Shown: positions 1,892 to 23,622 of the stretch, one piece after another | Layout of the letters: every line of letters starts with the position of its first letter | Numbering within the stretch: position 1 is the first letter of the stretch | NCBI GenBank assembly: GCA_963662275.1 | Contig: OY759316.1 | Span: forward strand, 3,264,001-3,328,000 | Direction of reading: 5' to 3' | From: Candidatus Cloacimonadales bacterium | Lineage (GTDB): Bacteria; Cloacimonadota; Cloacimonadia; Cloacimonadales; DAONDQ01 | Length of the DNA stretch: 64,000 nt | Notes under the pieces: generated by a model | What the model was told of the DNA's origin: nothing | Databases searched by the model: none | Seen by the model: the letters and a program-made list of their open reading frames with translations, nothing else | Position numbers and translations under genes: made by a program

Positions 1892-2686
1892 TTACGCCTG
1901 GTCAGGATCTATTTCTTTAGTATTCGCTTTTTTCTTGGTCGTTTGTTTCTCAACTTTCAAGGCAGCAACTGCATCTTCAGATGTATCAACCTTCACTTTT
2001 GTGGTTTTTGCCTTAACGCTGACAGATGCTGTCTCCTCTTCTGAGGTTTCGGCATCCAAAGCTATTTCATTGGCTTCAATAGCGGAAATCTGTTCCGGTG
2101 TTGGTTCCGGTTCCATTTTGGAAATGATCTTATCAATCTCTTTCTTCGGGGATATGATCATCATGAGTAAGTTCTTTTCCGCTAAAGGCTGGGAATCAAC
2201 GTCAGCAATATAGGCTAAATCTGCTGCCAATCGTTCCAGGATGGAATAACCAAGTTCCTTGTGTGCCATCTGGCGACCACGGAATTTGACTGTGAATTTT
2301 ACCTTATTATGTTGTTTCAGGAAGCGAGTTGCATTATTCTTTTTAAAGTTGTAATCATGCTCCTCGGTACTCGGTCCGAACTTGATTTCCTTCACTTGAA
2401 TTTCATGCTGTTTCTTACGGGCTTCCTTCACTTTCTTTTCTTTTTGGTAGTAGTATTTGCTAAAATCCATGATGCGGCATACAGGTGGATCAGCAGTGGG
2501 TGATATTTCGACTAGATCAAGCTCTGCTTTCTCTGCCATTTTCATTGCTTCACTGGTTTTTACAATACCAACCTGTGTTCCGTCTGCATCAATTAAACGC
2601 ACCTGATCACATGTGATCTGGCGATTTGAGCGTTCTTTTGGCACGACTTCCTTCATCTTTGCCTTGCCTTTGCGAATCCGGATTAT
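1892..2686 (-). CDS. infC: Translation initiation factor IF-3, probable AUA start, long charged C-terminal extension
   Basis: VRLIDADG..GIV, LDLVEISP..DPPVCRIMDF, VKEIKF, FRGRQ; AAGGAGG-N5-ATA lies in frame 10 codons upstream of the ATG at 2656. Confidence 0.95.
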   Translation of the reverse strand: MIRIRKGKAKMKEVVPKERSNRQITCDQVRLIDADGTQVGIVKTSEAMKMAEKAELDLVEISPTADPPVCRIMDFSKYYYQKEKKVKEARKKQHEIQVKEIKFGPSTEEHDYNFKKNNATRFLKQHNKVKFTVKFRGRQMAHKELGYSILERLAADLAYIADVDSQPLAEKNLLMMIISPKKEIDKIISKMEPEPTPEQISAIEANEIALDAETSEEETASVSVKAKTTKVKVDTSEDAVAALKVEKQTTKKKANTKEIDPDQA

Positions 2687-2713
2687 AGTGGCCTCCTTAT
2701 GGTTATCGTGAAC

Positions 2714-2830
2714 ATAAAAAAAGAGCGGATAAAATATCCGCCCGCTTTATAACTAAGTACATAAATCTCAATACATAGACCTTACTAATATCATCTGAAT
2801 CGTAAGGTAGAAGCGGACAGCCTCTTTACT
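2714..2830 (-). promoter_or_regulatory. L20-leader-like attenuator upstream of infC-rpmI-rplT
   Basis: Hairpins AGAGGC/GCTTCT and ACCTTAC/GTAAGGT; antiterminator CTGTCCGCTT/AAGCGGGCGG competes with terminator GCGGATA/TATCCGC followed by a T run. Confidence 0.75.
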
Positions 2831-3884
2831 CTATAACCAACTTCGTAGACTTCTGGAAATGCGTCAAGTGAATTCAGGAAATTTAACCACGAAACACACG
2901 AAATACACGAAAACAGATATTGTAAGGTAAGGATCAACGGATCAGAATCGTCTGGCATGTCGTAGAGTAGGACTCCGTTCCTGCTTCTGCTTTCGTTCTT
3001 CGCATTTCGCACTACGTATTTCGTACTTCGTACTTCCTTAGAATCCTTAGTATAGTTTAGAGCCTGAAACTTAATTAAACATTATTACGTGTCGATTTTC
3101 GACATCAAAAACGACATGAATAGCTTGTCTTTAAAAAGAATTAATAAAGCGTATTTTTAAATATCCTGTTCTTGTATAACCCCAAACAAAAAGGAGTTAA
3201 AGTGTGAAATCTGAAAATCTCTTATCACGTTTATCAGTCTGTTTTATCGATTTCCTTATTTGCTGGTAGCTGATAATTCTGAAAAACTCCACAGGAGTGA
3301 AATCCGATAACCTGACGTGTGAACGTCAGGATAGCTATGGGAAAAGAATGATAAAACGTTTCAACCCAACGCGGGTGACACTTTTACCGGAACGCTGTTT
3401 TCAAACGGCTATGCTCTGCAACTTCAAAAAGCCTCATAAATTAAGCATTCCATTAGCAATGTAGGGGTTTGCGGAAGTAAACCCATCTGCTGAATGTTGT
3501 GATATCAGTGAAGCAAGAAAAGCAGTAAGTTCATCTAAAATCGGATGCTCTAAATCTCAACTATCTTAACAGTTGAACAGTTCTGCTTTAAAGGGGTTGG
3601 GGGGTCTCTTTCTGTTCTACATTGAGTGGCACTTTGTTGTACGATGGGATTGGTTATCCCAGAGAAATGCAGATTCCGATAATACCATTATCGAATACAA
3701 CACATTACCAATGTATGTTACAACATTGGTGGTTACTCCTTGAGCTGTGTGGAAACTCCTTAAGGTGTTGGCTTCTCTTCTAAAAAGCAACGTAAACGAA
3801 GCTGCCACGATTCCTGAAGTAATCACCACACCAAAACAGCTTACAAAGCTATAGTACAGGTAAAAAGGTAAGAAACCTAAAAAA

Positions 3885-4829
3885 CTACTGGACTGCCCTG
3901 CAGAGACGGACACCCTGGACGAAGTAGCTGACGTACGGGTTGACGTAGTACCGATTCGAAACCCGACAGTCGTAGGCATCGTTGCCCCAGTAACTGCCGC
4001 GTAGCACACGGTTGGGTCCGCTAACTGCACCCTGTGGATTCGTCTGCGCATCAGAGCTATAGGTGCCATACCAGTCCCAGCACCACTCATACACGTTGCC
4101 GCTCATATCATAGATTCCCAGAGCATTGGGAGCCTTCGTACCGACAGGATGAGATGTGTCCCCGGAGTTTGGATGGTACCACGCCACGGCATTCACATCA
4201 TCGCTGCCGATGTATAGATAATCCGGTGTGGAAGTTCCGCCCCTTGCTGCAAATTCCCACTCCGCTTCCGTAGGTAACCTGTACCCATTGGCTGTCCAGT
4301 TGCTGATTGCTGCATCCCAGGTAGCGTCATTTCCAGAAGTGGGAACTGTGCCCCAAGCTGTGGGATTTGTAGAACCACTGATCGTATAGACCGGAGTAAG
4401 ACCTTCGTTCAGACTGCGCAGGTTGCAATACTTCAGGATATCATACCTGGATACATAGTACACAGGATAGTTGCTTCCTACTCCGTATGTTGTTCCAAAT
4501 CCAAATGGATCGCTATTCCATGCTCCCATCACAGCCTCCCATTCGCCCTGCGTCAGCTCATACTTGCCAATCATAAACGATGATAACGTCACGCTGTGCG
4601 TTGGCAATTCCCATTCGATTGCGCCACCGTGTGTATCACCCATGGTGAAAGTACCCCCCGGCACCAACACCATCTGCCCAGGAGTTGTACCCTGGCTAAA
4701 AGTTATATCCGTAATTTCGTTCAGATTAAATGTGGTTGTACCGTTTGTAGTGTGCACATTCAGTTGAGCCTGCGCAAATAGAAAAGAGGTAAAAAGGATA
4801 AGGCAGCTAATAAGTAATATTTTATACAT
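3885..4829 (-). CDS. Secreted FGE-sulfatase (SUMF1/CLec-fold) domain protein; possible DGR target
   Basis: Signal peptide; MVLVPGGTFTMG, GYRLPTEAEWEFAARGG, PNALGIYDMSGNVYEWCWDWY, RVLRGSYW...GVRLCR. Confidence 0.9.
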   Translation of the reverse strand: MYKILLISCLILFTSFLFAQAQLNVHTTNGTTTFNLNEITDITFSQGTTPGQMVLVPGGTFTMGDTHGGAIEWELPTHSVTLSSFMIGKYELTQGEWEAVMGAWNSDPFGFGTTYGVGSNYPVYYVSRYDILKYCNLRSLNEGLTPVYTISGSTNPTAWGTVPTSGNDATWDAAISNWTANGYRLPTEAEWEFAARGGTSTPDYLYIGSDDVNAVAWYHPNSGDTSHPVGTKAPNALGIYDMSGNVYEWCWDWYGTYSSDAQTNPQGAVSGPNRVLRGSYWGNDAYDCRVSNRYYVNPYVSYFVQGVRLCRAVQ

Positions 4830-4838
4830 AACATACTC

Positions 4839-5288
4839 CTATTTCAGCATCAGCATTTTATTGACTTTGATTTGGTCATCGCATTTAACCTTATAAATAT
4901 AAGGTCCCGAGGCACAGGTATTGCCGGATTCATTCAAGCCATTCCAGGTCAGTTCGTGTACACCTTTAGTCATGTTCTCTTTTGCAAGAACTTTCACCAG
5001 TTGTCCTCTGATGTTATAAATTGCGACTTCCGTCTGATACGATTCTGACAATTCAAATTTGATGATGGTTGAGGGATTAAAAGGATTGGGATAATTAGTT
5101 AAAAACTTAATGGGGACTTTGGGCAGAAACGTTACCCAATCATTATTAGAGACGTTATTAAATGTGATCTGCTGAATATCCTGCACCTGGAACTCCGTAG
5201 TTGTTCCATTGGATAAATGGACAATCATGACATCACAATACAGCAGAAACGGCGCTAAACAGAGGCAGACAAGAAAGATATATCTCAT
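4839..5288 (-). CDS. Small secreted protein, essentially a FlgD-Ig/Por-secretion-type C-terminal domain
   Basis: Signal peptide; NYPNPFNPST, IYNIRGQLVK, WNG, SG.YIYK, KMLMLK. Confidence 0.85.
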   Translation of the reverse strand: MRYIFLVCLCLAPFLLYCDVMIVHLSNGTTTEFQVQDIQQITFNNVSNNDWVTFLPKVPIKFLTNYPNPFNPSTIIKFELSESYQTEVAIYNIRGQLVKVLAKENMTKGVHELTWNGLNESGNTCASGPYIYKVKCDDQIKVNKMLMLK

Positions 5289-5861: not shown

Positions 5862-5970
5862 GATTATACCGGTTTCAATCCTGTTTCATACCAGTTTCAA
5901 TCCTGTTTCATTCCTGTTTCGCAAAACTGATATGGAACAGGTATAAACCTTGCTTGGACTTGGATTAAAT
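5862..5970. repeat. 11-bp-period fold-back array; inverted copy at 63421-63540
   Basis: GTTTC at 5872, 5883, 5894, 5905 and 5916, then a degenerate inverted arm. Confidence 0.85.
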
Positions 5971-6081
5971 TCAGTATCATATATTCGGTTCTTTGTTTGC
6001 CTGGAGGTAAGGTTGTCCCAACCTCGAAACGATAAGCATAAGGTGCTAGGTGCCAGACTCAGGGCGGAGCATCTGCAGAGT

Positions 6082-6127
6082 AGGCGAAAGGAATTCGCCT
6101 CGCACGCCGATAAGCAATCGGCGTTCC
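6082..6127. repeat. 46-bp twin-hairpin repeat; copy at 15323-15368
   Basis: AGGCGAA-loop-TTCGCCT CGC ACGCCGAT-loop-ATCGGCGT TCC. Confidence 0.9.
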
Positions 6128-6222
6128 AGATGGGTCTGCTGACGCAAACCCCTACTTTTTTCTTGCCTTTGATTTCAAACATATTTCCAATTGCTTTTTT
6201 TTGTGAAGAAGGAGGCAATCCT

Positions 6223-7146
6223 ATGGATAGCAAAGTCATTGACTGGTTATTAACCGGGGATGTATCGATCCAGTACCAGGTTTATCGGGATCTACTGCAT
6301 GAAGATCGGAAAGAACTGCAGCAAAGGATTCACAACGAAGGTTGGTGTAAACATTTCCTGGATCTACAGAAGGATGATGGACATTGGGCGTTGGGTTGGT
6401 ATCGACCAAAATGGACTTGCACTCACTACACTTTACTTACTTTGAAATACCTCTCACCCATTAAAGAAATCTCTTCGATCCAGGGAATCATAGAAAGCGG
6501 TTTGAAGAATAACTTCGCCAAGGATGGGGGCATTGGTTTCTGGGGTAATCACACTTACAGTGACGTTTGCGTGAATGGCATGTTCCTGAACTATGCAGCT
6601 TATTTTGTCAAGCCGGATGAGCGTTTTCATATTCTCATCGATTCGCTGCTGAAGATGCAGATGAAGGATGGAGGCTGGAATTGTCGTTTTCGTCATGGTG
6701 CAGTTCATAGCTCTTTTCATACTACTTTAGCCGTACTGGAAGGCTTGTGGGAATATCGGCAAAATGATGGTGTTTATCGATTGAACGAAATCACAAAAGC
6801 GGAGAATAGAGCCATCGAATTTCTCCTTGAACACAATCTATTCCTTTCACATCGCACAAAAGAGATCGTAGATCCTAAAATGACCATTATTTCTTATCCT
6901 CCGCATTGGAGATATAATATCCTGAGGTCTTTGTTGTACTTCGTAGAAAGAAAATTACCCTGGGATGACAGGCTGAAACCTGCAATTGACCTATTGCTAA
7001 AAAAAAGAACACCGGAAGGTTTCTGGCTGCTTGAACAACATCAACCGGGGAAAGTGCATTTCCGAATGGAAAAAGTAGGAAAACAGAGTTATTGGAATAC
7101 GCTCAGAGCACTGAAAGTGCTGTCAGAATTAAAAATTAAAAGTTAA
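6223..7146 (+). CDS. Conserved hypothetical protein with prenyltransferase/squalene-cyclase-like repeats
   Basis: AGGAGG RBS before MDSKVIDWLLTGDVSIQYQ; QxxDGxW repeats (QKDDGHW, QMKDGGWNC); YPPHWRYNILR; WNTLRALKVL. Confidence 0.8.
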   Translation: MDSKVIDWLLTGDVSIQYQVYRDLLHEDRKELQQRIHNEGWCKHFLDLQKDDGHWALGWYRPKWTCTHYTLLTLKYLSPIKEISSIQGIIESGLKNNFAKDGGIGFWGNHTYSDVCVNGMFLNYAAYFVKPDERFHILIDSLLKMQMKDGGWNCRFRHGAVHSSFHTTLAVLEGLWEYRQNDGVYRLNEITKAENRAIEFLLEHNLFLSHRTKEIVDPKMTIISYPPHWRYNILRSLLYFVERKLPWDDRLKPAIDLLLKKRTPEGFWLLEQHQPGKVHFRMEKVGKQSYWNTLRALKVLSELKIKS

Positions 7147-7440: not shown

Positions 7441-9888
7441 CTATCTCACCAGCATCATTTTCTTCATATCTGTATAGTCTTTCGTTACCATACGATAGAA
7501 GTAAATTCCGCTAGCTACGGCTTTACCATTGGCATCCGTGCCATCCCAATTGGCTGTATAGGAACCGGCTGCCTTATTATTATCTATATAACTCCGAATA
7601 AGCTGACCTTTTACGTTATAGATATCAATCCTGACATCCTGCGCATCTTTCAAATCATACCGAAGAGATGTGCTTTCCTTGAATGGATTGGGATATGCAT
7701 TCAAGAGACATGTGAAGGCAGGAATAACCGAAGGAGTATCAGGATTAGAGCCGGCAGATGCCATCAGTGGACCGAAGTATTCGGTGGAACCACTCTGGGA
7801 GACGCTTTCCAGCCAGAAGTAATAAGGACTGTCCATCGCTTCATCCTGGTAAGCGAAGTTATAGGTGGTTTGCGTACCTGCACTGACACCATTGGATATG
7901 AGTGAAGTATTCAATTTTGTGGCAGAGCTTAAGTTGTTCATAGCTGAGCGCAGGACGTTAAAGCCCATGTGATTCGTTTCAGATTGGGTGATCCACTGCA
8001 GGCTGACATAATAGGATGAAGTTACCGCTGCTGTGAAGGAAGACAGTTCTACAGGCAACTCTACCTCTGCCCTATTATTGAAGACAACTTCAAAATCACC
8101 ATTCGCTTTGACAGCAGGGACTGTGAATGTGCATTGTGTATTCGTCCAGGTTCCGTCATTCGGATTGAATATTGTTGTAAATCCATTGGGAATGAAGCGA
8201 TAGGAGATTGAGCCGGGAGTAAAGCCCAGATTATGGGTAAAGGTAATAACTGCTCCGGAAAGAGAGCCGGAAGAAACATTGAGAACCAATGAAAGCCCTG
8301 AATTATTCAATAACGGATCAGGAGTTGTCCAGTACAGAGTGGCATTCACGGTCGGATCACCGGTTATATTAGTGATATGCAGATCGGTATCCAGCTCAAG
8401 ACCGGTGGTTGTATCATAGATAGGAGATGGATTCAGATCAACAACACCGCCGTTTGCATCTCCGGAAGAAGTCACTTTATCGTCACCATTCATCGTAATA
8501 CGGAAGTTATCGATATAAACATCTACTGTAGTTTCGAAGAAGTACATAAAGATATAATTATCAGATACAGATGGTGTAAAAACATATCTGCTAAGTGCGT
8601 AATCTGTATTGGTGACCATCGTGTGAAAACCACCACACAAACCTCGATTTCCAGTATCAAAACCATTATATCTAAGAATAAATACCTCGTCTGATGGGGG
8701 CATTGGCTGAGAGACACGGTAATTGTATTTGATTTCATATGTATTTCCTGCTATTAATCGAAACACGGGGCTCAGGATAATATTGTAACTATTATTGTAA
8801 TCTATGTCACCAGCCATCTTCATAGCATAGTTAGCCTCGCCATCGGGACAACGAAGACCCAAATGCATACCTGCTCTGTTGGGACTTTTCTGTGACACAG
8901 TAAAGATATTTTCAAGGGTTTCAGTATCCAAACCTCCTGCTGCTTTCTTTCCAGCAATATAAGATAGATTGTTCCATGTTAAATCCTCTACTTCGAAGTC
9001 TGCAAGATATGGGAAATCAACTATTTCATTTGTGAGTAATAAACCTCGTGTTCTGAATTTATAGACTTGGGAATTGACAGAATGTCCTAAATTATCCTCA
9101 AAATTGACATACCAGTAATAGGTTGTTTCATTTGCCAAAGGTTCTGCAGGAACAAACTGAGCATTAGTCCCATGATAGAGTAAACTGTAATTCAAGCTAT
9201 CTGTGCTGATATACACTGAAGAAGTGTATGACAAATTATAAAGATACCAGGAGAATTGTGTATCTATCTGAACATCTGTAGCGTTATTGCTCGGTGTAAT
9301 ATATAGTAACGGCGGACCTGCAGTGATACGGAAATTATCAAAATTTAAACTCGCTTGCTCAGTGCCACTCGCTACTCCTCCATAGTAGAAATATTTGGAT
9401 GAGCCACCCAAGAAACCAAGATTAATTGTACTCTCACTCCATCGATTTCCATTCCACTCACCATCAACTGCCAGATTCAATGTTTCGAGTTCCTGAGCCG
9501 TATAATAACCTGAGTTATCAGTACCCATCAATACTCGCAACCAAGTAGCATCATGGGTAAAATATGCATATCCGGAATAAGTAACTCGATAGAATTCTGA
9601 TCCTGCGGGGAAATCAACTCTTGGACTCGTCAGGTATGCAGTGTGATTTGCTGCTAAATTTACCCAGTTATTACCATCTGCAGCACCTGGTACAGAAGGA
9701 TTTGTTTGTTCAACAGAACCAAGTGAAAAAACATTACCAGATGGGGCAGTCCATCCAGCTGGTGGGAATGTTGGACCTTCGAAGCTTTCCTGATAAGGGA
9801 AGGTATTGACTACCGGTTCGACAGCAAAAAGCTGACTTAGGATGCCACAGGTAAAAATCAAAATGATTAGAAAGATAATCTGTTTCAT
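7441..9888 (-). CDS. Secreted multidomain surface protein (adhesin-like beta-sandwiches, FN3-like, LPVELSSF linker, FlgD-Ig/Por-type CTD), paralogue B
   Basis: Signal peptide after AGGAG RBS; FPYQESFEG.TFPPAGW; ETTYYW; AYPNPF...IYNVKGQLIR...WDG...SGIYFYR. Confidence 0.85.
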   Translation of the reverse strand: MKQIIFLIILIFTCGILSQLFAVEPVVNTFPYQESFEGPTFPPAGWTAPSGNVFSLGSVEQTNPSVPGAADGNNWVNLAANHTAYLTSPRVDFPAGSEFYRVTYSGYAYFTHDATWLRVLMGTDNSGYYTAQELETLNLAVDGEWNGNRWSESTINLGFLGGSSKYFYYGGVASGTEQASLNFDNFRITAGPPLLYITPSNNATDVQIDTQFSWYLYNLSYTSSVYISTDSLNYSLLYHGTNAQFVPAEPLANETTYYWYVNFEDNLGHSVNSQVYKFRTRGLLLTNEIVDFPYLADFEVEDLTWNNLSYIAGKKAAGGLDTETLENIFTVSQKSPNRAGMHLGLRCPDGEANYAMKMAGDIDYNNSYNIILSPVFRLIAGNTYEIKYNYRVSQPMPPSDEVFILRYNGFDTGNRGLCGGFHTMVTNTDYALSRYVFTPSVSDNYIFMYFFETTVDVYIDNFRITMNGDDKVTSSGDANGGVVDLNPSPIYDTTTGLELDTDLHITNITGDPTVNATLYWTTPDPLLNNSGLSLVLNVSSGSLSGAVITFTHNLGFTPGSISYRFIPNGFTTIFNPNDGTWTNTQCTFTVPAVKANGDFEVVFNNRAEVELPVELSSFTAAVTSSYYVSLQWITQSETNHMGFNVLRSAMNNLSSATKLNTSLISNGVSAGTQTTYNFAYQDEAMDSPYYFWLESVSQSGSTEYFGPLMASAGSNPDTPSVIPAFTCLLNAYPNPFKESTSLRYDLKDAQDVRIDIYNVKGQLIRSYIDNNKAAGSYTANWDGTDANGKAVASGIYFYRMVTKDYTDMKKMMLVR

Positions 9889-10068: not shown

Positions 10069-12504
10069 CTATCTCACCAGCATCATCTTCTTCATATCAG
10101 TATAATCTTTAGTTACCATACGATAGAAGTAGATTCCACTGGCTAAGGCTTTGCCATTAGTATCTGTCCCGTCCCAGGTGGCTGTATAGGTACCGGCTGC
10201 CTTATTATTATCTATATAACTCCGAATAAGCTGACCTTTGACATTATAAATATCGATCCTGACATTCTGCGCATCCTTCAAATCGTAACGAAGAGATGTG
10301 CTTTCCTTGAAAGGATTGGGATATGCATTCAAGAGACATGTGAAGGCAGGAATAACAGAAGGTGTATCTGGATTTGAGCCGGCTGATGCCATCAGTGGAC
10401 CGAAGTATTCGGTGGAACCACTCTGGGATACACTTTCCAGCCAGAAGTAATAAGGACTGTCCATCGCTTCATCCTGGTAAGCAAAGTTATAGGTGGTTTG
10501 CGTACCTGCACTGACTCCATTGGAAATGAGTGATGTATTCAATTTTGTGGCTGAGCTTAAGTTGTTCATGGCTGAGCGCAGAACATTAAAACCCATATGA
10601 TTAGTTTCAGACTGCGTTACCCACTGCAGGCTGACATAATAGGATGAAGTTACCGCTGCTGTGAAGGAAGACAGTTCTACAGGCAACTCTACCTCTGCCC
10701 TATTATTGAAGACAACTTCAAAATCACCATTCGCTTTGACAGCAGGGACTGTGAATGTGCATTGTGTATTCGTCCAGGTTCCGTCATTCGGATTGAATAT
10801 TGTTGTAAATCCATTGGGAATGAAACGATAGGAGATTGAACCGGGTGTAAAGCCCAGGTTATGGGTAAAGGTGATGATCGCTCCTGAAAGAGAACCGGCA
10901 GAGACATTGAGTACCAATGAAAGCCCGGAGTTGTTCAATAACGGATCAGGAGTTGTCCAGTAAAGAGTGGCATTCACTGTCGGATCACCTGTAATATTGG
11001 TGATTTGCAGTTCGGTATCCAGCTCAAGACCGGTGGTTGAATCATAGATTGGAGCCGGATTCAGATCAACAACGCCACCGTTTGCATCTCCGGAAGCTGT
11101 CACTTTATCTTCACCATTCATCGAAATACGGAAGTTATCAATGTAAATATCAACAGATGAATAGTAATAAAAGAAAAAGAGATAATCATCCGTTCTAGTT
11201 GGAGTAATGATCACTCTCGAAAGTGCATAATCCGTATTCGTGATCATAAAATATGTATTCATCATCTCTTCGGTACTTCCAGGGGCTTGATAGAAAGCAA
11301 ATAAACCCCCACCCTCATTTCCCATAGGTTGGGAAACACGATAATTGAACTTAACTTCATACGTTGTACCTGCAACCAAGCGAACAAATGGAGAAAAGAG
11401 AATACCCAATACACCATTCTGCGCGGATGGCATCTTCATTGCATAATTAACTCCACCATCAAGACAACGTTCAGCATATTGCACCTGTTCTCTCGTTGAG
11501 CCCTTCTTAATACCGAATATTTTTTTTCCCAGAGCATCCATATCCTGAGCTTCTGGTATACTTTTCCCAACATTTAAGTTCGCTGTATTATTCCATGATA
11601 AGTCATCTACCTGGAAGTCATCCAAGTAAGGAAAGTCAACTATTTCGCCCGGCATGGGTGTGTTTCCTCTTGTTGTGAAAGAACATACAGGGGTATTGAC
11701 TGAGTGTCCCAAATTATCTTGAATCTGGACATACCAGTAATAGGTTGTTTCAATATTGAGAGGATTGTCAGGGGTATTCTGATTGCTTGTTCCAGTATAG
11801 AGTAAATTGTAATTCAAGCTATCAGTGCTTATATAGACTGAATAAGTATATGCCGAATTGGAAATGCCCCACCAAAATGCTGTAGTTGGACGAATATCAA
11901 CAGCATGATTAGCAGGTGTAACTTCGAGAACAGGAGGTCCGGCAGTTATCCGGAAATCATCAAAATTCAAATCTGCACCCCAAGCTTGACCACCTATAAA
12001 GAAATACTTTGCAGAACCATCCATAAAACCTAGATGATCTGTAAGCGTTCTCCAGCGACTTCCATTCCATTCAGCATCATTCCCCATATTCCATACATCA
12101 ACTTGCTCACTCGAATTAGGATTAGTATCAGATCCCATCCTTACTCTAAATATCATAGAGGAAGGTGAAAAACAATATCCAGAAATACTTAACTGATAGA
12201 ATTCAGATCCGGAAGGAAACTCAAATTTAGGACTGGTAATCAATCCATCGTTTCCAGCTGCCATATTTACCCAGTTATTGCCATCTATAGCACCTGGTAC
12301 GACAGGATTTGTTTGTTCAGCAGAGTTAAGTGAAAAAATGCCTGGAGCAAACATCGGGTTTACTGACCATCCCGCTGGCGGGAAGGTGCTGCCTTCAAAG
12401 CTTTCCTGATAAGGGAAAGTATTGATGGCAACTGCTTCAGCAAAAAGCTGGCTAAGGATGCAACAGGTGAAAGCTAAGATGACAAGAATGAGTATTTTTT
12501 TCAT
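10069..12504 (-). CDS. Secreted multidomain surface protein with FlgD-Ig/Por-type CTD, paralogue A
   Basis: Same architecture as 7441-9888; C-terminal ~355 aa nearly identical. Confidence 0.85.
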   Translation of the reverse strand: MKKILILVILAFTCCILSQLFAEAVAINTFPYQESFEGSTFPPAGWSVNPMFAPGIFSLNSAEQTNPVVPGAIDGNNWVNMAAGNDGLITSPKFEFPSGSEFYQLSISGYCFSPSSMIFRVRMGSDTNPNSSEQVDVWNMGNDAEWNGSRWRTLTDHLGFMDGSAKYFFIGGQAWGADLNFDDFRITAGPPVLEVTPANHAVDIRPTTAFWWGISNSAYTYSVYISTDSLNYNLLYTGTSNQNTPDNPLNIETTYYWYVQIQDNLGHSVNTPVCSFTTRGNTPMPGEIVDFPYLDDFQVDDLSWNNTANLNVGKSIPEAQDMDALGKKIFGIKKGSTREQVQYAERCLDGGVNYAMKMPSAQNGVLGILFSPFVRLVAGTTYEVKFNYRVSQPMGNEGGGLFAFYQAPGSTEEMMNTYFMITNTDYALSRVIITPTRTDDYLFFFYYYSSVDIYIDNFRISMNGEDKVTASGDANGGVVDLNPAPIYDSTTGLELDTELQITNITGDPTVNATLYWTTPDPLLNNSGLSLVLNVSAGSLSGAIITFTHNLGFTPGSISYRFIPNGFTTIFNPNDGTWTNTQCTFTVPAVKANGDFEVVFNNRAEVELPVELSSFTAAVTSSYYVSLQWVTQSETNHMGFNVLRSAMNNLSSATKLNTSLISNGVSAGTQTTYNFAYQDEAMDSPYYFWLESVSQSGSTEYFGPLMASAGSNPDTPSVIPAFTCLLNAYPNPFKESTSLRYDLKDAQNVRIDIYNVKGQLIRSYIDNNKAAGTYTATWDGTDTNGKALASGIYFYRMVTKDYTDMKKMMLVR

Positions 12505-15531: not shown

Positions 15532-16293
15532 CTAAGGATTAATTCGTACTGAGCTGGAAGCAGGGATCCAACCGCCTAAGCCATTCGGTAATTTGACTTG
15601 GCTCCAGGAATCTTCTTCCTTCTCAATCGAGAATATCATTCCTTCATGAATAGTGAAAACGCGAGTGAAATCACTGCCAGGTCCGCTATATCCAACTTCC
15701 GAAGGAATCACCAGTACCGCTGTTTTGTGGCTTGCATACTGATGATATTTCACAATTCCAATAATTGTGCTGAAAAGCAGGAAAGAAAGGAAAATGATCA
15801 GGATAAATACCGGCAGGTATCTTTCTTCACCAGAATGCCAAAACCAAATATAGTAGAGTGTACCAATGCTCATGATCAGGAAAAGGAGAACCATGATGGC
15901 AATCCGGTTCAGTGTGAGAATATTCATAAGATTAACGATCACATTTCCAATAAAACCACCCTGCGCCTGGTATTGCTGGTCACGTGTGAGAGAGAGGGCG
16001 AGCTGCAGGTTTCGCTGTGCTGAAGTATGAGCAGAATTGAACCGCAATGCCCTTTTGTAGTATAGTATGGAGGCTCCCAATTTCTGCAAACGATAATAGC
16101 AGTTACCCATATTGTAATAGAGGTCTGCATTTTGGATGCCTTGAGCTTCCATTTTACCGTAGAAAGTCAGAGCTTCAGAGAATTGTTTCTTTGTATAGGC
16201 AGCATTTGCCTGCTGAGCCAAGTTATTTTTGGTGGCACTGAAGAGCTGCAGAGATAGAATCAAGAGAAGAATGAGTAGAGATATCTTCCTCAT
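15532..16293 (-). CDS. batE: BatE-like TPR plus SH3b protein
   Basis: LYYNMGNCYYRL TPR, two TM segments, IHEG...WSQVKLPNGLGGWIP; last gene of the bat cluster. Confidence 0.85.
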   Translation of the reverse strand: MRKISLLILLLILSLQLFSATKNNLAQQANAAYTKKQFSEALTFYGKMEAQGIQNADLYYNMGNCYYRLQKLGASILYYKRALRFNSAHTSAQRNLQLALSLTRDQQYQAQGGFIGNVIVNLMNILTLNRIAIMVLLFLIMSIGTLYYIWFWHSGEERYLPVFILIIFLSFLLFSTIIGIVKYHQYASHKTAVLVIPSEVGYSGPGSDFTRVFTIHEGMIFSIEKEEDSWSQVKLPNGLGGWIPASSSVRINP

Positions 16294-18125
16294 AACCAAC
16301 CGCCCTGACGCTTTTTCTTGGAATGACTGAATTCCGTAACGATATTCCGTAAAATTTGAAAGTCTGCTGAAATCTGCTGTTCAGAGAACCCCCCAGGCAT
16401 GAAACGAGCTTCATTGCATCTTGTGAAGAATGTTCCCAAAGCTTCCAACAATTCAGCAGGGCATCCCTTATCCTTCAGATCTGTCATAAGCTCTTCCGTA
16501 GAAGCGCCTTTGGAAATGCGCAGTTTATCACTGATAAATTGAACCAGACCATTCTGTGCTGAAGAATAAAATAAGGGATTGTTCGTATTGGAGTACAAGG
16601 TAGCTTTTTTCAGATACTTAGATAGAATTTTATTAGCAAGTTTCTGGCGTGAATATTCAGGATTCAGGGATAGTTTTTTCTGTTCTTTGCTCATCCTGAA
16701 TGCGAAAGGTAAAGTCATTAGGAACAGAATCAGAAGCAGCCAATACCAGGTTTGATTAAATATGGGTGTCTGAAGACTGAAATTTTTATCATCGCTGATA
16801 AAATCTATATCCTTATTTTCCTGTTTGACTGCAGTCTGTAACAATCCTGCCTGCATGGGATAAGATTCTCCTTCCAATACTTCCAGGTGATGACCGGAAG
16901 ATAGAATCGTTACATAAACGCCTTTGCTGTTATCAAAGTAAGAGAAAGAATATGGAGGAATATCGTAACTTCCCTTTTCCTGGGCAAGAACCAGATACTT
17001 GATTGTTTTGACACCTTCCACGCCGTTCTTCACCTGGTTATTCACTTCCGGTGTCATGAACCTCAGATTCGGAATCTCCGCTAAGGCTGGAACCGTAAAT
17101 TGATTAATATTCCCTGAACCTGAGATTGTTATCGTATATACAAGAGATTCTCCTGCTTTGATTTGCGTTTTATCAATGGATGAACTAATAGAATATCTAC
17201 CAATAGCACCAGTAAAATCAGCCGGGTTACCCTGTTCAGGTAAAGGAAGCACCCTGATTGATTGAGGTTTGCTTTGTAAATTCAAGCGATCTGTCATCCC
17301 AAAGCCAAAGAATCCGCCATTGGTTCTTTGCGCATCTGCAACAACAGTCATCAGGGGAATTGTGATCGTTCCTGTTTTATTGGGGGTAAGGACAACTGTC
17401 TGCAATAATATGGAACCATATGTTTTGCCATTATAGGTTGCATTCTCTAAGCGGAGTTGCGATGCAGTATATACCAATTCCTTGCCGTATCCGGCATAGT
17501 CTTTAATCTCTCCCAGATTCACACCTGTTAATCGTTGCTGAGTATATAAACGGTAATTCACAAGTACGGGTTCACCCTTATAGACTTTAGTTTTGGAAGG
17601 AGTACCCACAATGAATGTTGCATCAGCATAATTTTGCTGCGGTGTGTTATCTTGATCAGGTTCATCAAAGAAAGAGGGAAACCCAAACGGAGATTGCAGC
17701 TGCTGAGCACGAGGCTGCTGCCTTTGGGTCGAACCTTTTACAACCTGTATTTGGATCGGTGCTGACTGGTAGGTTTTTCCCTTAAATGCAATCGAAATCG
17801 ACGGAATGGGAAAAGTTCCTACACGCTTAGGTGAAAGCGAATAACGATAAGTTTTACTGACACTCTGATTCATGACACCATTCACAATAGAAATAGAAGA
17901 TTGGGATGAGGTTGATACTCCCAGATTCACAAATTCCATTTTCGGTAACAGGGGAGCTTGAATCTTATCAGCTTCTTTACCGGAGATTGTAACCATCAAA
18001 GAAAATTCTTCCGACTGTCCGACCGTTGTTCTATCAACACTGGCAGAAATTGAAATTTCCTGTGAACTCAGTAAAGAGAAGAGGAAAAGGAAAAAGCATG
18101 TCAGAAATGCAATTTTATTCATCAC
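16290..18125 (-). CDS. batD: BatD family protein
   Basis: ASVDRTTV, SSQSSISIVNG, VYKGEPVLVNYRLY, FTGAIGRY, EARFMP. Confidence 0.88.
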   Translation of the reverse strand: MMNKIAFLTCFFLFLFSLLSSQEISISASVDRTTVGQSEEFSLMVTISGKEADKIQAPLLPKMEFVNLGVSTSSQSSISIVNGVMNQSVSKTYRYSLSPKRVGTFPIPSISIAFKGKTYQSAPIQIQVVKGSTQRQQPRAQQLQSPFGFPSFFDEPDQDNTPQQNYADATFIVGTPSKTKVYKGEPVLVNYRLYTQQRLTGVNLGEIKDYAGYGKELVYTASQLRLENATYNGKTYGSILLQTVVLTPNKTGTITIPLMTVVADAQRTNGGFFGFGMTDRLNLQSKPQSIRVLPLPEQGNPADFTGAIGRYSISSSIDKTQIKAGESLVYTITISGSGNINQFTVPALAEIPNLRFMTPEVNNQVKNGVEGVKTIKYLVLAQEKGSYDIPPYSFSYFDNSKGVYVTILSSGHHLEVLEGESYPMQAGLLQTAVKQENKDIDFISDDKNFSLQTPIFNQTWYWLLLILFLMTLPFAFRMSKEQKKLSLNPEYSRQKLANKILSKYLKKATLYSNTNNPLFYSSAQNGLVQFISDKLRISKGASTEELMTDLKDKGCPAELLEALGTFFTRCNEARFMPGGFSEQQISADFQILRNIVTEFSHSKKKRQGGWL

Positions 18126-18134
18126 CTATTCCGT

Positions 18135-18788
18135 TTACCAGTATTTTGCATTTTTAGGTCTTTTTGCCGGAACTTGCTGTTTCTTTTTCATATCATTCCT
18201 CTCATTTTCCATCAAAGCTTTCAATAATTGATCTGCATCTTTTTTCTTTTGATCCTGTTGAGTCTGCGGAGTGCTTTTTTGTTGTTCTTTCTTTTGCTCT
18301 TTTTTCTGATCCTGTTTCTGATCCTGCTTCTGTTTCTGCTTTTGCTGCTGCTGTTGAATCAAGGCTTTTTTTGCCATTTCATAATTATATCGTGCTTCCT
18401 GATTCTTCGGTGAATCAATGACAGCTTTTTTATAATTGTCAAGTGCCTGCTCATATTCTTTTTTATTATAATGTATATTCCCCATGTTCTGATAGGCTTT
18501 GCTCTGATCCTTAAAATTTTTATCGGTAAGCGCTTTCTGATATGAAGTGAGCGCATCATCCACCTTACCCAGCTTATAATTCGTATTGCCGGAATTGTAT
18601 TGAAGGCGTCCATCTTTCGGATGGTTAACAGCATTCTTATCAAAAGTCTTACCAGCCTCAGTATATTTCTTTTTCTCGTATTGCTTCTTGCCTTTCGCAT
18701 TCTGATATGATTTATCGAAATTGATATCGATAGCAGAAAGGGCAGAGAACAGGAACATGGCAATCAGTAATATAGATATTTTCTTCAT
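18135..18788 (-). CDS. batC: BatC-like TPR protein with Q/K-rich linker
   Basis: TPRs, ARYNYEMA, QQQQQKQKQ tail, A.QLL.AL..NE, terminal W. Confidence 0.85.
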   Translation of the reverse strand: MKKISILLIAMFLFSALSAIDINFDKSYQNAKGKKQYEKKKYTEAGKTFDKNAVNHPKDGRLQYNSGNTNYKLGKVDDALTSYQKALTDKNFKDQSKAYQNMGNIHYNKKEYEQALDNYKKAVIDSPKNQEARYNYEMAKKALIQQQQQKQKQKQDQKQDQKKEQKKEQQKSTPQTQQDQKKKDADQLLKALMENERNDMKKKQQVPAKRPKNAKYW

Positions 18789-18795
18789 TTTACAC

Positions 18796-19812
18796 CTATG
18801 ACAAAAATCTTTTTGGTTCCGTGTTTCGTTTGAAAGTCAAGACAGAAGCAATCAGGAATAGGAATAAAGAAAATCCTGCGAACCAGGTGTATTGTTCCTT
18901 GTATCGGTCATAATACTTGGAAGAGTACTTATTCTTTTCAAATCCTTCTATCGATTTCATGATCGCATAGATTTCGGATTGCTGGGGAGTTACCAGGTAG
19001 AACCTGCCGCCTGTTGCTGATGATATTTCATTCAGTGTTCTGCTATCCAGTTTGGATACGACAAAATTACCTGATTCATCAAGAGCATTATGGACATTTC
19101 CATTTTCATCCTTGATCGGAATGGAACTGCCACCGGATGACCCTACTCCCAGTGTGTATACGGTAATTTTCTTGTTCGACATTTTTCGTGCCTGGGCAAT
19201 CACATTTCCTTCCAGGTTTTCACCATCACTGATTAGAACCACAACCCGATTCTTTGTATTTTCAGGAAATACACTTTCTGCTTTTGATAAAGCGGCTGTG
19301 ATATCTGTTCCGAATATTGGAACTGAATCCGTATTCAAATTGCCTAAAAAGAGTTTAGCAGCACCATAGTCATCCGTGAGCGGACATTGTACAAAGGCAG
19401 TACCTGCAAAAGCAACGATGGCTATGCGGTCACCTCGTAACTGATCAATAAATAATGATATCTGATCTTTTGCTCTTTCCAGACGACTGGGTTGGATATC
19501 TGTTGCATCCATGCTTTTAGATACATCAATGCAGACAACAATATCCAGTCCGTTTCTCTGCATCATCTGCATTTCCCTATCCCATTGGGGGCGAGCTAAA
19601 GCCAATACCAGGAAGAAAAAAGCGCCAAGTAGAAGAGCAGCTTTCAAATACCAATGAAAAATTGAAAGAGGCTGCAAATAAAAAGGCAGAAAACGGTTTT
19701 CAGCGAATTTCTCCATCCTGGAAGCACGCTTTCTTTTATCCTGTGACAGGTAAAATAGCCCCACTGGAATCAGAAGCAGGAGCAACAGAAAATATGGATT
19801 TCCCCAATGCAT
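18796..19812 (-). CDS. batB: BatB VWA-domain protein
   Basis: LARPQW, DVSKSM MIDAS, PSRLERAK, PLTDDY, LISDGE. Confidence 0.9.
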   Translation of the reverse strand: MHWGNPYFLLLLLLIPVGLFYLSQDKRKRASRMEKFAENRFLPFYLQPLSIFHWYLKAALLLGAFFFLVLALARPQWDREMQMMQRNGLDIVVCIDVSKSMDATDIQPSRLERAKDQISLFIDQLRGDRIAIVAFAGTAFVQCPLTDDYGAAKLFLGNLNTDSVPIFGTDITAALSKAESVFPENTKNRVVVLISDGENLEGNVIAQARKMSNKKITVYTLGVGSSGGSSIPIKDENGNVHNALDESGNFVVSKLDSRTLNEISSATGGRFYLVTPQQSEIYAIMKSIEGFEKNKYSSKYYDRYKEQYTWFAGFSLFLFLIASVLTFKRNTEPKRFLS

Positions 19813-19824
19813 TTCATCACTCCT

Positions 19825-20817
19825 TTAAGGTAATTCCCTACGCCAGACATACAGTAATACAAATTGCAGCAGCATCAGCAAGGCAGCAAAACCCAGCAAA
19901 TAGCTGAACAACTCACGATAAGTATAATAGTTATTCACTTTGTATTTCGTTTTTTCCAAGTTATCGATGTTTTTCACAATATCGCCTAATTCATTTGTGC
20001 TCGTAGCTAAACTAGCTTTTCCGGTACCAGTAATAGAAGCAATGCGATCCAAAGTAGCCATGTCCATATCTATCTTCACTTTTACATAACGTCTACCGAA
20101 TGTAGGATCATCCACAGGGAAATCGACAAGTCCATTACTCCCGACTCCGATCGGATACACTCTAATTTTGTATGTATTTGCCAAGTCAGCAGCAGTTGAA
20201 GGATCAATTTCACCGGTATTGTTATTACCATCAGTAATGAGAATGATCACCTTCGATTTTGCCTCAGAACTCTTCAACCTGGCGACCGCAGTAGCCAAAC
20301 CCATGCCAATGGCAGTAGAACTGGCTTCCTCATTGATTTTGATATTATCGAGAAGTTGTAATAAGATATTATAATCCAACGTCAAAGGACATTGAGTCAA
20401 TGCATATTCGGAAAAGACTACAAGTCCAATACGATCGTTTTGCCGATTGGAAATAAAGTCACGTGCCACTGTTTTGGCTGCTTCCAATCTGTTTGTTGGT
20501 TTGAAATCCACTGCCATCATGGAACCGCTGACATCCAAAGCAATGACTATATCGATACCCTTCCCCTGAACTTCAGAGTTCTTGAAACCAAGACGTGGAC
20601 GAACCAAGGTAAGAACCAGTGTTAAAATAATGAGACAGTTAATAGTTATTTGAACATACTTCCAAAGATGTTCCTTCTTCGCTATTTTCCTGATCAGGTT
20701 TAAACGGCTAAATGGAAGAAAGATACGTTTTTTAAAACCGATCTTCCATTCATAATAAAGGTAAGCTGGTATTAAGAGTAACCCAAGTAATAACCAGGGA
20801 TGGAGGAACTCAAGCAT
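19825..20817 (-). CDS. batA: BatA VWA-domain protein
   Basis: GIDIVIALDVSGSM, NRLEAAK, TAIGMGLATAVARL, ILITDGNNNTG. Confidence 0.92.
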   Translation of the reverse strand: MLEFLHPWLLLGLLLIPAYLYYEWKIGFKKRIFLPFSRLNLIRKIAKKEHLWKYVQITINCLIILTLVLTLVRPRLGFKNSEVQGKGIDIVIALDVSGSMMAVDFKPTNRLEAAKTVARDFISNRQNDRIGLVVFSEYALTQCPLTLDYNILLQLLDNIKINEEASSTAIGMGLATAVARLKSSEAKSKVIILITDGNNNTGEIDPSTAADLANTYKIRVYPIGVGSNGLVDFPVDDPTFGRRYVKVKIDMDMATLDRIASITGTGKASLATSTNELGDIVKNIDNLEKTKYKVNNYYTYRELFSYLLGFAALLMLLQFVLLYVWRRELP

Positions 20818-21724
20818 TGGGAGTCTCCTTTTCCACTGGTTTTTCTATTTGGCTGAAAGATTGCAGATACTGGTATAACCAGCGATAGGCTTCCTCAGAA
20901 TCACCGGGCGTAGGAATATGTTTGGCAAACTTCACTCTATCCGCTTCCTGCAAGTATTCCACAATTCCTGCTTTCCAGGTATAATCATTTGAGCTTAGTA
21001 TATCATGTATTTCAGAAGTTGTCATTTCCACGGCATTGAATCCGGCATAGTTTTCAATAAAACGACGCAGGATCATAGATAAGCCGAAATGGTAATCCAG
21101 GAACTCACCTTTATCCAAGAGTCGTTGAGATTGCAGTAAAACCAATTCGTCCAAGGCAATCTGCCAAGCGGGACGTGAATCGACAGGTTTTCCAATGGGT
21201 ATGATTTGTTTCTTCCTGAAATGCAGATAATGGATGATTAGATAAGTAATACCCGCAATGAGAACTAAAGCCAAGAGAATAACGATGTAATTCCAAATTG
21301 TCCAGGGAACATTCAGTGCATCTGCAATATCCTTGAGTTTAGGCTCTCCTTTTGGGGGAAGAACAGATCTTACGGTTAGGTTAAACGGAATGATGGCTGC
21401 ACTATCAGCGGTTGTCTTTTTATATACTTCAATTTTGAGAGCAGGAAACTGGAGATTTCCTACTTCAAAAGCAGCAGCTTTGATAATGAATTCATTCTTT
21501 CCTTTTTCTGTTGATCTCTTCTGTTCCAGTATTTGAAAATTAGGCAGAGAATCGGGAATAACCACATTGAGACTATCCGTTCCTTGAGGCAGGGAAAGAT
21601 GAATATAGAATGGAATCCCAATATATAGTGTATCAGGTATTTCATTTTTTTGTGTTAACGTCATAGCATGAGCCAGGCTCAGTGATAAAAAGAGGATAAG
21701 GAGTAATATTAGTTTTCGATTCAT
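20810..21724 (-). CDS. Bat-cluster membrane protein (BatD-like Ig domain plus TM)
   Basis: Signal peptide, LKDI, TM, AVEMTTSEI, ADRVKFAK; sits between DUF58 and batA. Confidence 0.75.
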   Translation of the reverse strand: MNRKLILLLILFLSLSLAHAMTLTQKNEIPDTLYIGIPFYIHLSLPQGTDSLNVVIPDSLPNFQILEQKRSTEKGKNEFIIKAAAFEVGNLQFPALKIEVYKKTTADSAAIIPFNLTVRSVLPPKGEPKLKDIADALNVPWTIWNYIVILLALVLIAGITYLIIHYLHFRKKQIIPIGKPVDSRPAWQIALDELVLLQSQRLLDKGEFLDYHFGLSMILRRFIENYAGFNAVEMTTSEIHDILSSNDYTWKAGIVEYLQEADRVKFAKHIPTPGDSEEAYRWLYQYLQSFSQIEKPVEKETPNA

Positions 21725-21725
21725 A

Positions 21726-22610
21726 TTATGATTTTACTCTTTTCCGTATTCTTGTTTTAAAGAACTTCTGCAATTCAGTAACATATGATTGATCTGTTTT
21801 CAGATTAACCAGGTCGACTTGCATCTTCTTAAAACGTGATTGAAGGTCATTTTCCCAATCCTGGGATTGTTTATTATACTGCTTTCTAATAGCGCTGTTC
21901 ATTGAATTCACTGTGAAAGTATCTCCCGTTTCAGGGTCTTGCAGATGAAGAATACCGGCTTTGGGTAATTCCAATTCAGCCTGGTCAATGACACGCAGTG
22001 CCACAACATCATGCTTCTTTCCCAGGAGTTGAAGACTTCTTTCATATCCTTTATCATAGAAATCAGATACAATGAAGAAGATACTGCGTTTCTTTACTAA
22101 ATGTGAGATATATTCAACTGCCTGGCGTATATTTGTACCTTTCCCTTTCGGTTCATAGAACAGGATATCTCTCAGGATTTGCAAGGCAGCCTTCTTTCCT
22201 TTGCGAGGTGGAACATACTTTTCTATTTTATCAGAAAAAAGTAATAATCCAACTTTATCCTGGTTGGAAAGGGCAGAAAATGAAAGAACAGCCGTTACTT
22301 CTGTGATATACTCTGATTTCAGGTATTGCCTTGTTCCAAAGACATTGGAAGCGCTGCAATCAACCAGGAAGATGACATTCAATTCGCGGGTTTCTTCGAA
22401 CTTCTTAATGTAAGGATGACCCATACGGGCAGATACATTCCAATCGATATCCCGATAGCTATCACCTATCTGGTATTCGCGTACTTCAGCGAATTCCAGT
22501 CCCTGTCCACGGAATACGCTATGGTATTCCCCGGAAAAGACTTCCTGCACCATGTTTTTGGTAGTGATTTCAATTCGTCTGATACGTTTCAGAATATCGG
22601 ATGTATCCAT
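21726..22610 (-). CDS. DUF58 domain protein
   Basis: GEYHSVFRGQGLEFAEVREYQIGD..RDIDWNVSAR. Confidence 0.93.
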   Translation of the reverse strand: MDTSDILKRIRRIEITTKNMVQEVFSGEYHSVFRGQGLEFAEVREYQIGDSYRDIDWNVSARMGHPYIKKFEETRELNVIFLVDCSASNVFGTRQYLKSEYITEVTAVLSFSALSNQDKVGLLLFSDKIEKYVPPRKGKKAALQILRDILFYEPKGKGTNIRQAVEYISHLVKKRSIFFIVSDFYDKGYERSLQLLGKKHDVVALRVIDQAELELPKAGILHLQDPETGDTFTVNSMNSAIRKQYNKQSQDWENDLQSRFKKMQVDLVNLKTDQSYVTELQKFFKTRIRKRVKS

Positions 22611-22613
22611 AAA

Positions 22614-23600
22614 TTATGGAACCTCTATCTCATCGAATATCTTACTGATAATCTGTTCCTGGGTAACTTGTTCCGCTTCCGCTTCATAGGTCAGAATGAC
22701 ACGATGACGCAAGACATCCCTTCCAATTGCTTTAATATCATCAGGAATCACATAACCGCGATGTTCCAGGAAAGCATGAGCTTTGGCAGCACGAGCAAGA
22801 TAAATTGATGCACGGGGAGAAGCACCACATTCGATCATATTGTTCAAACTTTGGAGATTGCGGAAGTCAGAGGGATTACGGGTTGCAAAGACTAAATCCA
22901 GGATATATTCCTTCAATTTGTCTTCCATGTAGATTTCCTTGATGACTTCACGCATCTTCATAATCTGGGATGGTTCCAAGACAGGAGTAACCAGTATGGC
23001 TTCATCTGGAACCATACGGTTCATAATTTGTCTTTCTTCATCACGATTCGGATAATCAATTCTTAATTTCAGCATAAAACGGTCAACTTGAGCTTCCGGT
23101 AAAGGATATGTACCTTCCTGTTCCAATGGATTCTGGGTTGCCATGACTAAAAAAGGTGTAGGCAGGGAATAGGTTGTATCACCGATAGTAACCTGTCTTT
23201 CCTGCATTGCTTCTAACAGGGCAGACTGTACTTTCGACGGTGCTCTGTTGATTTCATCGGCAAGGATGAAATTGGCAAATATTGGTCCATGTTTCACTAT
23301 AAAATCAGATGTCTTCTGGTTGTAGATTAGTGTTCCTGTCACATCAGCAGGTAGTAAGTCTGGTGTGAATTGAATCCTATGAAATGAACTCTTGATAGTT
23401 TGAGCAATGGTGGAAATCGTCAACGTTTTAGCAAGACCGGGTACACCTTCCAGCAGGAGATGTCCATTTGCTAAAAGCCCAACGAGAATACGTTTCACCA
23501 TGTAGTTCTGCCCGACAATGACTTTCTGGACTTCCTTGATCACATCGTCTAAAACAACACTACTTTCAAGCACCTTGCGATGAATTTCCTCTATCATCAT
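22614..23600 (-). CDS. moxR: MoxR-family AAA+ ATPase
   Basis: LLEGVPGLAKT, RIQFTPDLLPAD, ADEINRAPSKVQSALLEAMQE; AGGAGG before ATG 23600. Confidence 0.95.
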   Translation of the reverse strand: MMIEEIHRKVLESSVVLDDVIKEVQKVIVGQNYMVKRILVGLLANGHLLLEGVPGLAKTLTISTIAQTIKSSFHRIQFTPDLLPADVTGTLIYNQKTSDFIVKHGPIFANFILADEINRAPSKVQSALLEAMQERQVTIGDTTYSLPTPFLVMATQNPLEQEGTYPLPEAQVDRFMLKLRIDYPNRDEERQIMNRMVPDEAILVTPVLEPSQIMKMREVIKEIYMEDKLKEYILDLVFATRNPSDFRNLQSLNNMIECGASPRASIYLARAAKAHAFLEHRGYVIPDDIKAIGRDVLRHRVILTYEAEAEQVTQEQIISKIFDEIEVP

Positions 23601-23622
23601 AATTCCTCCTAAAACAAATATA

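Follow-up and report, generated by a model that had tools for sequence, protein, structure and literature searches.

A probable DGR-type variable region at the end of a TvpA-like gene, with no template repeat or reverse transcriptase in a 64-kb window of Cloacimonadales DNA

We analysed a stretch of 64,000 nucleotides from a Cloacimonadales bacterium (the whole of this stretch is called the window throughout) and find that the 3' end of one of its genes is very probably a variable region (VR) written by a DGR. The reading is well supported: it draws on the codon signature of the segment, on the kinship of the gene product with TvpA of Treponema denticola, on a match to the VRs of relatives that have a template, and on the hypervariation of the same tail across the protein family. 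Neither a template repeat (TR), nor a reverse transcriptase (RT), nor Avd lies beside the gene, which makes it a non-adjacent DGR target. An earlier note on this DNA had called it "a remote or orphaned DGR target". The common part of that description, a DGR-type VR in a TvpA-like FGE/CLec protein with no DGR core in the window, is well supported; remote and orphaned, on the other hand, are two alternatives that our analysis does not separate. Whether a distant DGR in the same genome, presumably still present, continues to serve the gene is in our judgement evenly balanced.

Table 1. Features of the TvpA-like gene and its probable variable region (positions in the window)
Feature	Position	Strand	Remarks
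TvpA-like protein gene	3885..4829	(-)	intact ORF of 314 codons; product (314 aa) with FGE-type C-type-lectin fold
N-terminal signal peptide (predicted), residues 1-22, MYKILLISCLILFTSFLFAQAQ	4764..4829	(-)	read from the translation; cleavage site putative
Whole variable-region-like segment	3885..4010	(-)	A-poor scaffold codons and, as far as the stop codon, a G+C-rich 3' end
Putative mutagenised core, codons S279 to V307	3909..3995	(-)	contains 20 of the 22 non-scaffold codons, nearly every one NNC or NNT

Results

The gene product resembles TvpA in sequence and fold

The class against which we compared the gene is that of DGR variable proteins of the FGE-sulfatase/CLec1 type (TvpA type; category b of Wu et al. 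2018). Three features of that class are found here: an FGE-type fold, a C-terminal VR set on the conserved scaffold and occupying positions variable in proven targets, and the nucleotide signature of A mutagenesis. As to the first, residues 52-310 match the Pfam family FGE-sulfatase (PF03781) with an E-value of 6.6e-47. They follow a hydrophobic leader, MYKILLISCLILFTSFLFAQAQ, and a short motif, NGTTTFNLNEITDITF. The best solved relative by sequence is variable protein 1 of T. denticola, TvpA (PDB 2y3c; E 4e-44 over residues 77-309), with true formylglycine-generating enzymes (FGEs) 26 orders of magnitude behind at about 1e-17. A model computed with AlphaFold from an alignment of 67 sequences (mean pLDDT 77.1, pTM 0.76), in which residues 2-17 of the signal peptide form a helix, leads to the same structure: its top Foldseek match is again 2y3c (E 1.7e-20, TM 0.70/0.78), and FGEs come next at about 1e-13. 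Going by sequence and model, the gene product is best described as a non-enzymatic protein of the TvpA class, predicted to be secreted and to bind a ligand.

The last codons carry a signature of adenine mutagenesis

The last codons of the gene encode the tail RVLRGSYWGNDAYDCRVSNRYYVNPYVSYFVQGVRLCRAVQ. Those quoted in the earlier note are indeed found here, as the reverse complement of 3906-4010 at the 3' end of ORF 3885-4829 (-); on their 3' side stand seven more codons including the stop, CTC TGC AGG GCA GTC CAG TAG, which reach to 3885. Divided by conservation in the family, the tail comprises 19 scaffold codons and 22 non-scaffold codons. The claim that the latter are nearly all NNC holds in numbers: C is the last base of 17 among the 22, where 4.5 would be expected, and not one of 20,000 simulations that encoded the same residues with the codon usage of the window reached 17. 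Taking scaffold and non-scaffold codons together, C occupies the third position in 22 of the last 41 codons; elsewhere in the gene its share is 24%, and over 41 other ORFs it is 17%. When we slid a 41-codon window along 42 other ORFs, none of the 15,833 positions reached 18 C-ending codons (maximum 17, mean 6.9).

The same bias emerges when only Tyr, Asn, Asp, Phe, His and Cys codons are considered: 11 of 14 in the tail end in C, where the background count is 998 of 4062 (binomial p 3e-5) and that of the rest of the gene 24 of 66 (Fisher p 0.0045). For Tyr alone, TAC is used six times out of six in the tail, 184 times out of 773 in the background, and 5 times out of 17 in the body of the same gene, so that the preference is local to the tail and not gene-wide. 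The scaffold codons, for their part, are poor in adenine, with 3 A in 57 bases where 8.1 would be expected (P 0.026), and Arg is encoded by CGN in five of six cases, the commonest Arg codon of the background being AGA. Across the last 135 nt of the gene, 60-nt windows have a G+C content of 57-62% (39.3% for the 64-kb window), and the DNA 3' of the stop codon is AT-rich.

Two near-invariant scaffold residues are altered in the tail, G279S (codon AGT) and F307V (codon GTC). As the earlier note had remarked, GSYW and GVR thus replace the usual motifs, which in the family read GG.W in 114 of 119 proteins and GFR in 102 of 119. These substitutions could be point mutations that an abandoned variable region acquired after it was last written. 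A template with AGT or AAT at the first of these codons and ATC at the second would yield them too.

Relatives with a template share the scaffold and the variable positions

A search of genome contigs found at least 76 loci with relatives of 33-50% identity, those listed being relatives outside the window's own genome and outside the group of 60-69% identical Cloacimonadota relatives known as proteins. We compared each listed locus with itself, looking for repeats whose mismatches fall on the adenines of one copy, and obtained three TR/VR pairs: one in L031 (Bacteroidales, OY781043.1), one in L034 (Saprospiraceae) and one in L051 (Singulisphaera). An ungapped, A-tolerant scan of the 96-nt tail against its own locus picked out these three and no others among the matches listed: they show no non-A mismatches and 14-19 A mismatches, whereas the other 72 of the 75 scored tails have at least 18 non-A mismatches. 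The three templates encode R.LRGG.W NNN A.N CR...R NNNN P ....NNN. GFR, which is the scaffold of the window's tail, and their Asn codons correspond to Y, V, N, D, F and S in that tail. The codons of the putative mutagenised core coincide with the A-mismatch positions of the three pairs, as they do with the high-entropy columns of the protein family. In L031 the template (10917-11050) lies 210 nt past the VR (10574-10707), and 18 of 19 mismatches are at adenines; no RT ORF occurs within 10 kb on either side. The template of L031 is followed by a dnaX-like gene, and the locus holds a second, tandem FGE-domain gene (8519-9613) with a tail that is not VR-like and has no template match.

A G+C-rich, IMH-like 3' end of the VR together with a downstream hairpin is reportedly a feature of DGR targets, from work on phage BPP-1. 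At the window's VR, a hairpin search returned only a 4-bp stem (CTGC/GCAG), inside the 3' end of the VR itself, and no strong hairpin within 100 nt downstream. Downstream of the VRs of L034 and L051 there are G+C stems of 5 bp and 12 bp; L031 is without an obvious one.

We also asked how many of the relatives' tails carry the codon signature in its own right, defined as a C3 excess of at least 0.2 and an A deficit of at least 0.08 relative to the gene body. This screen left out 15 of the 76 listed loci, one for want of a usable match and fourteen because no tail of 37-48 codons follows the matched domain. Among the matches listed, 12 tails are positive, and 11 of these have no template in the flanks examined, which for seven of them extend about 10 kb on the 3' side. 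These eleven (L002, L004, L005, L007, L009, L012, L020, L044, L053, L063 and L068) come from Treponema, Bacteroidales, Prevotellaceae and others, and they fit remote targets and leftovers equally well. The screen picks up one of the three proven VRs and is therefore specific rather than sensitive: L034 is missed in a G+C-rich gene, and L051 falls short of the A criterion by 0.01.

The tail is hypervariable across the protein family

The best 120 family proteins are mostly from Cloacimonadota by name. In their tails, the columns with high entropy, where Y, S, N, G, D and F prevail, are the positions of the window's non-scaffold codons. Over 7,021 pairs among these proteins, mean identity is 65% in the body and 45% in the tail. 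Close relatives make the disparity plainer. P0061, P0069, P0085 and P0101 share 100% of some 225 body residues, with tails at 66-80%; P0020 and P0120 share 99.5% of the body and 73% of the tail; for P0044 and P0073 the figures are 98.7% and 56%. Variation concentrated in the tail segment, which the earlier note had put forward as something to look for, is thus borne out at the level of the family, where bodies of 98.7-100% identity go with tails of 56-80%. The four proteins with identical bodies are lipoproteins, and their tails also differ in length, through inserted stretches that include RYSYA and YTYSGLSVN, an outcome not expected of simple DGR homing.

The TvpA-like protein of the window has less close company. 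Its nearest relatives among the best 120 listed are 69% identical, and the protein collection contains no near-identical copy of the gene with another tail. A search with the tail only (residues 262-314) recovered just the protein itself among proteins of 172-550 aa and nothing among those of 30-171 aa; that is, no other protein of 30-550 aa has three 5-residue words in common with it, a negative that is weak because three common words were required. One of the 69% identical relatives, P0003, is apparently a paralogue encoded by the same genome. The differences between the two tails extend to scaffold positions, so that a template common to both genes is not evident.

No template, RT or Avd in the window

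The earlier note had seen no RT or template nearby, and this is true of the whole 64 kb by blastn, A-tolerant scan, Pfam and tblastn alike. A blastn search of the window with the last 260 nt of the gene (word size 7) found no second copy, only the segment itself. The A-tolerant scan of both strands found no template repeat in the window: its best non-self match has 32 non-A mismatches in 129 positions, where in such scans true templates have none and noise starts at 18. No RT family of Pfam is present in the 43 window ORFs of at least 150 aa that were scanned, and tblastn of the two RTs and two Avd proteins of L034 and L051 against the window gave nothing below an E-value of 0.8 for either RT or Avd. 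The top match in that search was the VR itself, hit by the end of the L051 RT reading frame that overlaps the template. Nor does the 1.2-kb ORF-free spacer on the 3' side of the gene (2657-3884) hold any remnant of a decayed DGR cassette. Template, RT and Avd are thus missing from the 3.9 kb 3' and the 59 kb 5' of the gene.

Genomic surroundings

The window is ordinary chromosome. It includes pheS, rplT, rpmI, infC, argS, der, priA and dnaE, a BatA-D/MoxR cluster, and many genes with T9SS sorting tails. These T9SS-tail genes, together with the names given to related proteins, speak for a Cloacimonadota-like host. The BatA-D/MoxR genes (16290-23642, (-)) are arranged BatD / TPR / BatA-like VWA / VWA / DUF58 / MoxR-type AAA ATPase, a cluster of the aerotolerance-operon type. 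Just 10 nt upstream of the TvpA-like gene lies a gene (4839-5288, (-)) whose 149-aa product carries a C-terminal sorting domain of the T9SS type. The two proteins have in common a leader and the N-terminal motif NGTTT.F.(L/V)..I..ITF (BLASTP E 4e-5), which in the window occurs only in these two reading frames, 4839-5288 and 3885-4829, and is found again in P0002, P0003 and P0015. The 149-aa protein is a possible surface-tethering partner of the TvpA-like protein.

Some further observations concern the vicinity. At 2711-2833 (-), immediately upstream of infC (1892-2656), which belongs to the infC-rpmI-rplT cluster, there is a sub-threshold match to the Rfam L20 leader over the full length of the model (47.3 bits against a gathering score of 58.7, E 1.8e-7), with a terminator-like hairpin at 2743-2723. 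An Acido-Lenti-1 sRNA match at 3285-3330 (-), likewise sub-threshold (34.8 bits against 37, E 1.9e-5), falls within the spacer 2657-3884, which is free of ORFs and separates the TvpA-like gene from infC. Between T9SS-tail genes, an ORF of 398 aa (5950-7146, (+)) has no Pfam family and a weak match to a squalene-cyclase-like repeat, far below the NCBIfam cut-off at E 3.5e-4.

Discussion

How might such a tail have come about? We suggest the following scenario. An A-rich template repeat, consisting mostly of AAC and AAT codons, would be copied into RNA; the template RNA would be reverse-transcribed with misincorporation at adenines; and the mutagenised cDNA would replace the variable region at the 3' end of the TvpA-like gene. 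The outcome would be NNC and NNT codons amid scaffold codons free of adenine, and the C-terminal binding loops, about 90 nt between 3909 and 3995, would be the part written by the DGR. Most likely, in our view, a DGR located elsewhere on the chromosome services the gene in trans, or did so until a time that is short when measured by synonymous change. The reading frame is unbroken, and the NNC bias shows no relaxation towards the 25% of C-ending codons that the genome uses. On the scale of synonymous change, a bias so little relaxed in an AT-rich genome probably places the last writing of the VR in recent time. The freshness of the signature does not distinguish between a DGR that is active now and one lost not long ago. 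As for reach, we consider it rather unlikely that a DGR acts in trans on this gene across at least 59 kb, and possibly megabases, with non-adjacent targets the rule in this family.

Two alternatives we hold to be improbable. One is that the gene product is a catalytically active FGE or belongs with the EgtB, PvdO or GldK/PorK-type proteins. It does have the Pfam FGE-sulfatase domain, and NCBIfam gives weak matches to PvdO, GldK and EgtB; the scores, however, are all far below the respective cut-offs (PvdO 73.5 against 500, GldK 72.4 against 350, EgtB 67.1 against 360, GldJ 43.5 against 458). Aligned by phmmer to 6muj, a Streptomyces FGE, the TvpA-like protein moreover has G282 and D287 opposite the two Cys of the enzyme's SYLCHDSYC. 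We take these two Cys to be the catalytic, active-site pair of FGE. With TvpA the best match by both sequence and fold, the FGE cysteines unmatched and the NCBIfam scores below their cut-offs, a TvpA-type binding protein is indicated rather than an enzyme, and the enzyme reading strikes us as very improbable. TvpA is not only a far better match but is itself reported to be without FGE activity (PMC5758913). The Cys mismatch speaks against membership among catalytic FGEs, and the sub-cut-off scores against membership in GldK/PorK, GldJ, EgtB or PvdO. The other alternative is that this is an ordinary member of the FGE-sulfatase superfamily, unrelated to any DGR, with loops that diverged in the normal way and a codon bias that is a local accident or the product of some other constraint. 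The R..RGG.W...CR...R scaffold does, after all, occur in many FGE-family tails that have no DGR, and 72 of the 75 scored loci among the matches listed have no template in the flanks examined. If this were so, however, we would not expect the C3 bias of the tail to be the most extreme in the window (22, where none of the 15,833 control windows reaches 18), nor would we expect it to be limited to the positions where the templates of L031, L034 and L051 have adenines, the scaffold codons to avoid A, or the best solved relative to be a DGR target, TvpA, 26 orders of magnitude in E-value ahead of the FGEs. We regard this explanation as improbable.

A more serious contender accepts that a DGR wrote the tail and differs about its present state. 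Imagine that the VR was written in an ancestor, or that the gene was transferred without its DGR. Template and RT would then be gone, the tail would be frozen, and the protein would be a binder of fixed specificity. Much of what argues against a DGR still serving the gene is what such a leftover would look like: there is no template, RT or Avd in 64 kb; the substitutions G279S and F307V sit at near-invariant scaffold positions; no clear or convincing hairpin follows the VR; and the protein collection holds no tail variants of the gene. The tail of the paralogue P0003 is a further point against continued service, and the G+C content of the gene body, about 50% where the window has 39%, could reflect acquisition from elsewhere. 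Leftovers of this kind are documented, too, in T. denticola isolates (PMC4891356). Against the leftover explanation stand the intact ORF and an NNC signature that is near complete (17 of 22, TAC 6 of 6) in a genome where 76% of Tyr codons are TAT. As the signature is still near complete, any loss of the DGR must have been recent on the scale of synonymous change. On this evidence, we hold a leftover to be a real possibility, somewhat short of an even chance.

What would follow if the gene is served by a distant DGR? A Cloacimonadota-like, free-living chromosome would join the few cases of long-range targeting, and if non-adjacent targets were moreover the rule in this family, surveys that require RT and VR on one contig would miss most targets of the FGE/TvpA class. 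In either case, recognising a VR by its own codon signature, without a template, offers a way to find remote DGR targets. The gene probably marks a secreted protein whose binding specificity is, or formerly was, evolvable, beside a putative T9SS-sorted partner.

Comparison with known systems

Targets at a distance from their DGR have precedents. In a survey of 372 DGRs, FGE-sulfatase/CLec1 targets form the largest target class, with 71 DGRs; 45 DGRs have non-adjacent targets, 73 in all, and for 10 DGRs, with 29 targets, the distance exceeds 100 kb (PMC5758913). The same source describes a Treponema DGR with seven remote targets, which can lie far from RT and TR (PMC5758913). Metagenome DGR surveys themselves state that targets away from the RT are missed (PMC8144416), and DGRs are reported to occur in Cloacimonadota (PMC11661182).

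The closest counterpart is TvpA (2y3c). Both proteins have an FGE-type C-type-lectin fold and carry their VR at the extreme C-terminus on the same scaffold (TvpA residues 254-290 align with the window's tail), and both are exported, the one considered here by prediction. The two differ in sequence, at about 33% identity in the structural alignment, and in context, as no cognate TR or RT was found within the 64-kb window. T. denticola targets, moreover, mostly have a lipoprotein signal (PMC4891356), whereas the present protein has a leader of the signal-peptidase-I type and an NGTTT..F motif; a lipobox is present in many other members of its family.

Of the relatives with templates, L031, L034 and L051 have a homologous domain of 40-41% identity with the same scaffold and variable positions. 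Their TR lies 0.2-1.6 kb downstream, unlike the situation in the window, and L034 and L051, again unlike the window, have Avd and RT. T. denticola isolates that lack RT and TR keep their target genes, with VRs that differ from known TRs mostly at adenines (PMC4891356). These leftovers resemble the present gene in combining a signature of A mutagenesis in the VR with no DGR core nearby; there, however, the TR of sister strains showed the A-specific differences (PMC4891356), whereas the window's VR is judged from its codon signature and from the templates of more distant relatives. The prototype, Mtd of Bordetella phage BPP-1, similarly has a C-terminal VR on a C-type-lectin fold, diversified via AAC codons (PMC11661182). 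It differs in being a phage tail-fibre protein outside the FGE subclass, with the DGR cassette immediately adjacent. The type of element proposed here and both of its candidate states, remote target and leftover, are thus already described in other bacteria.
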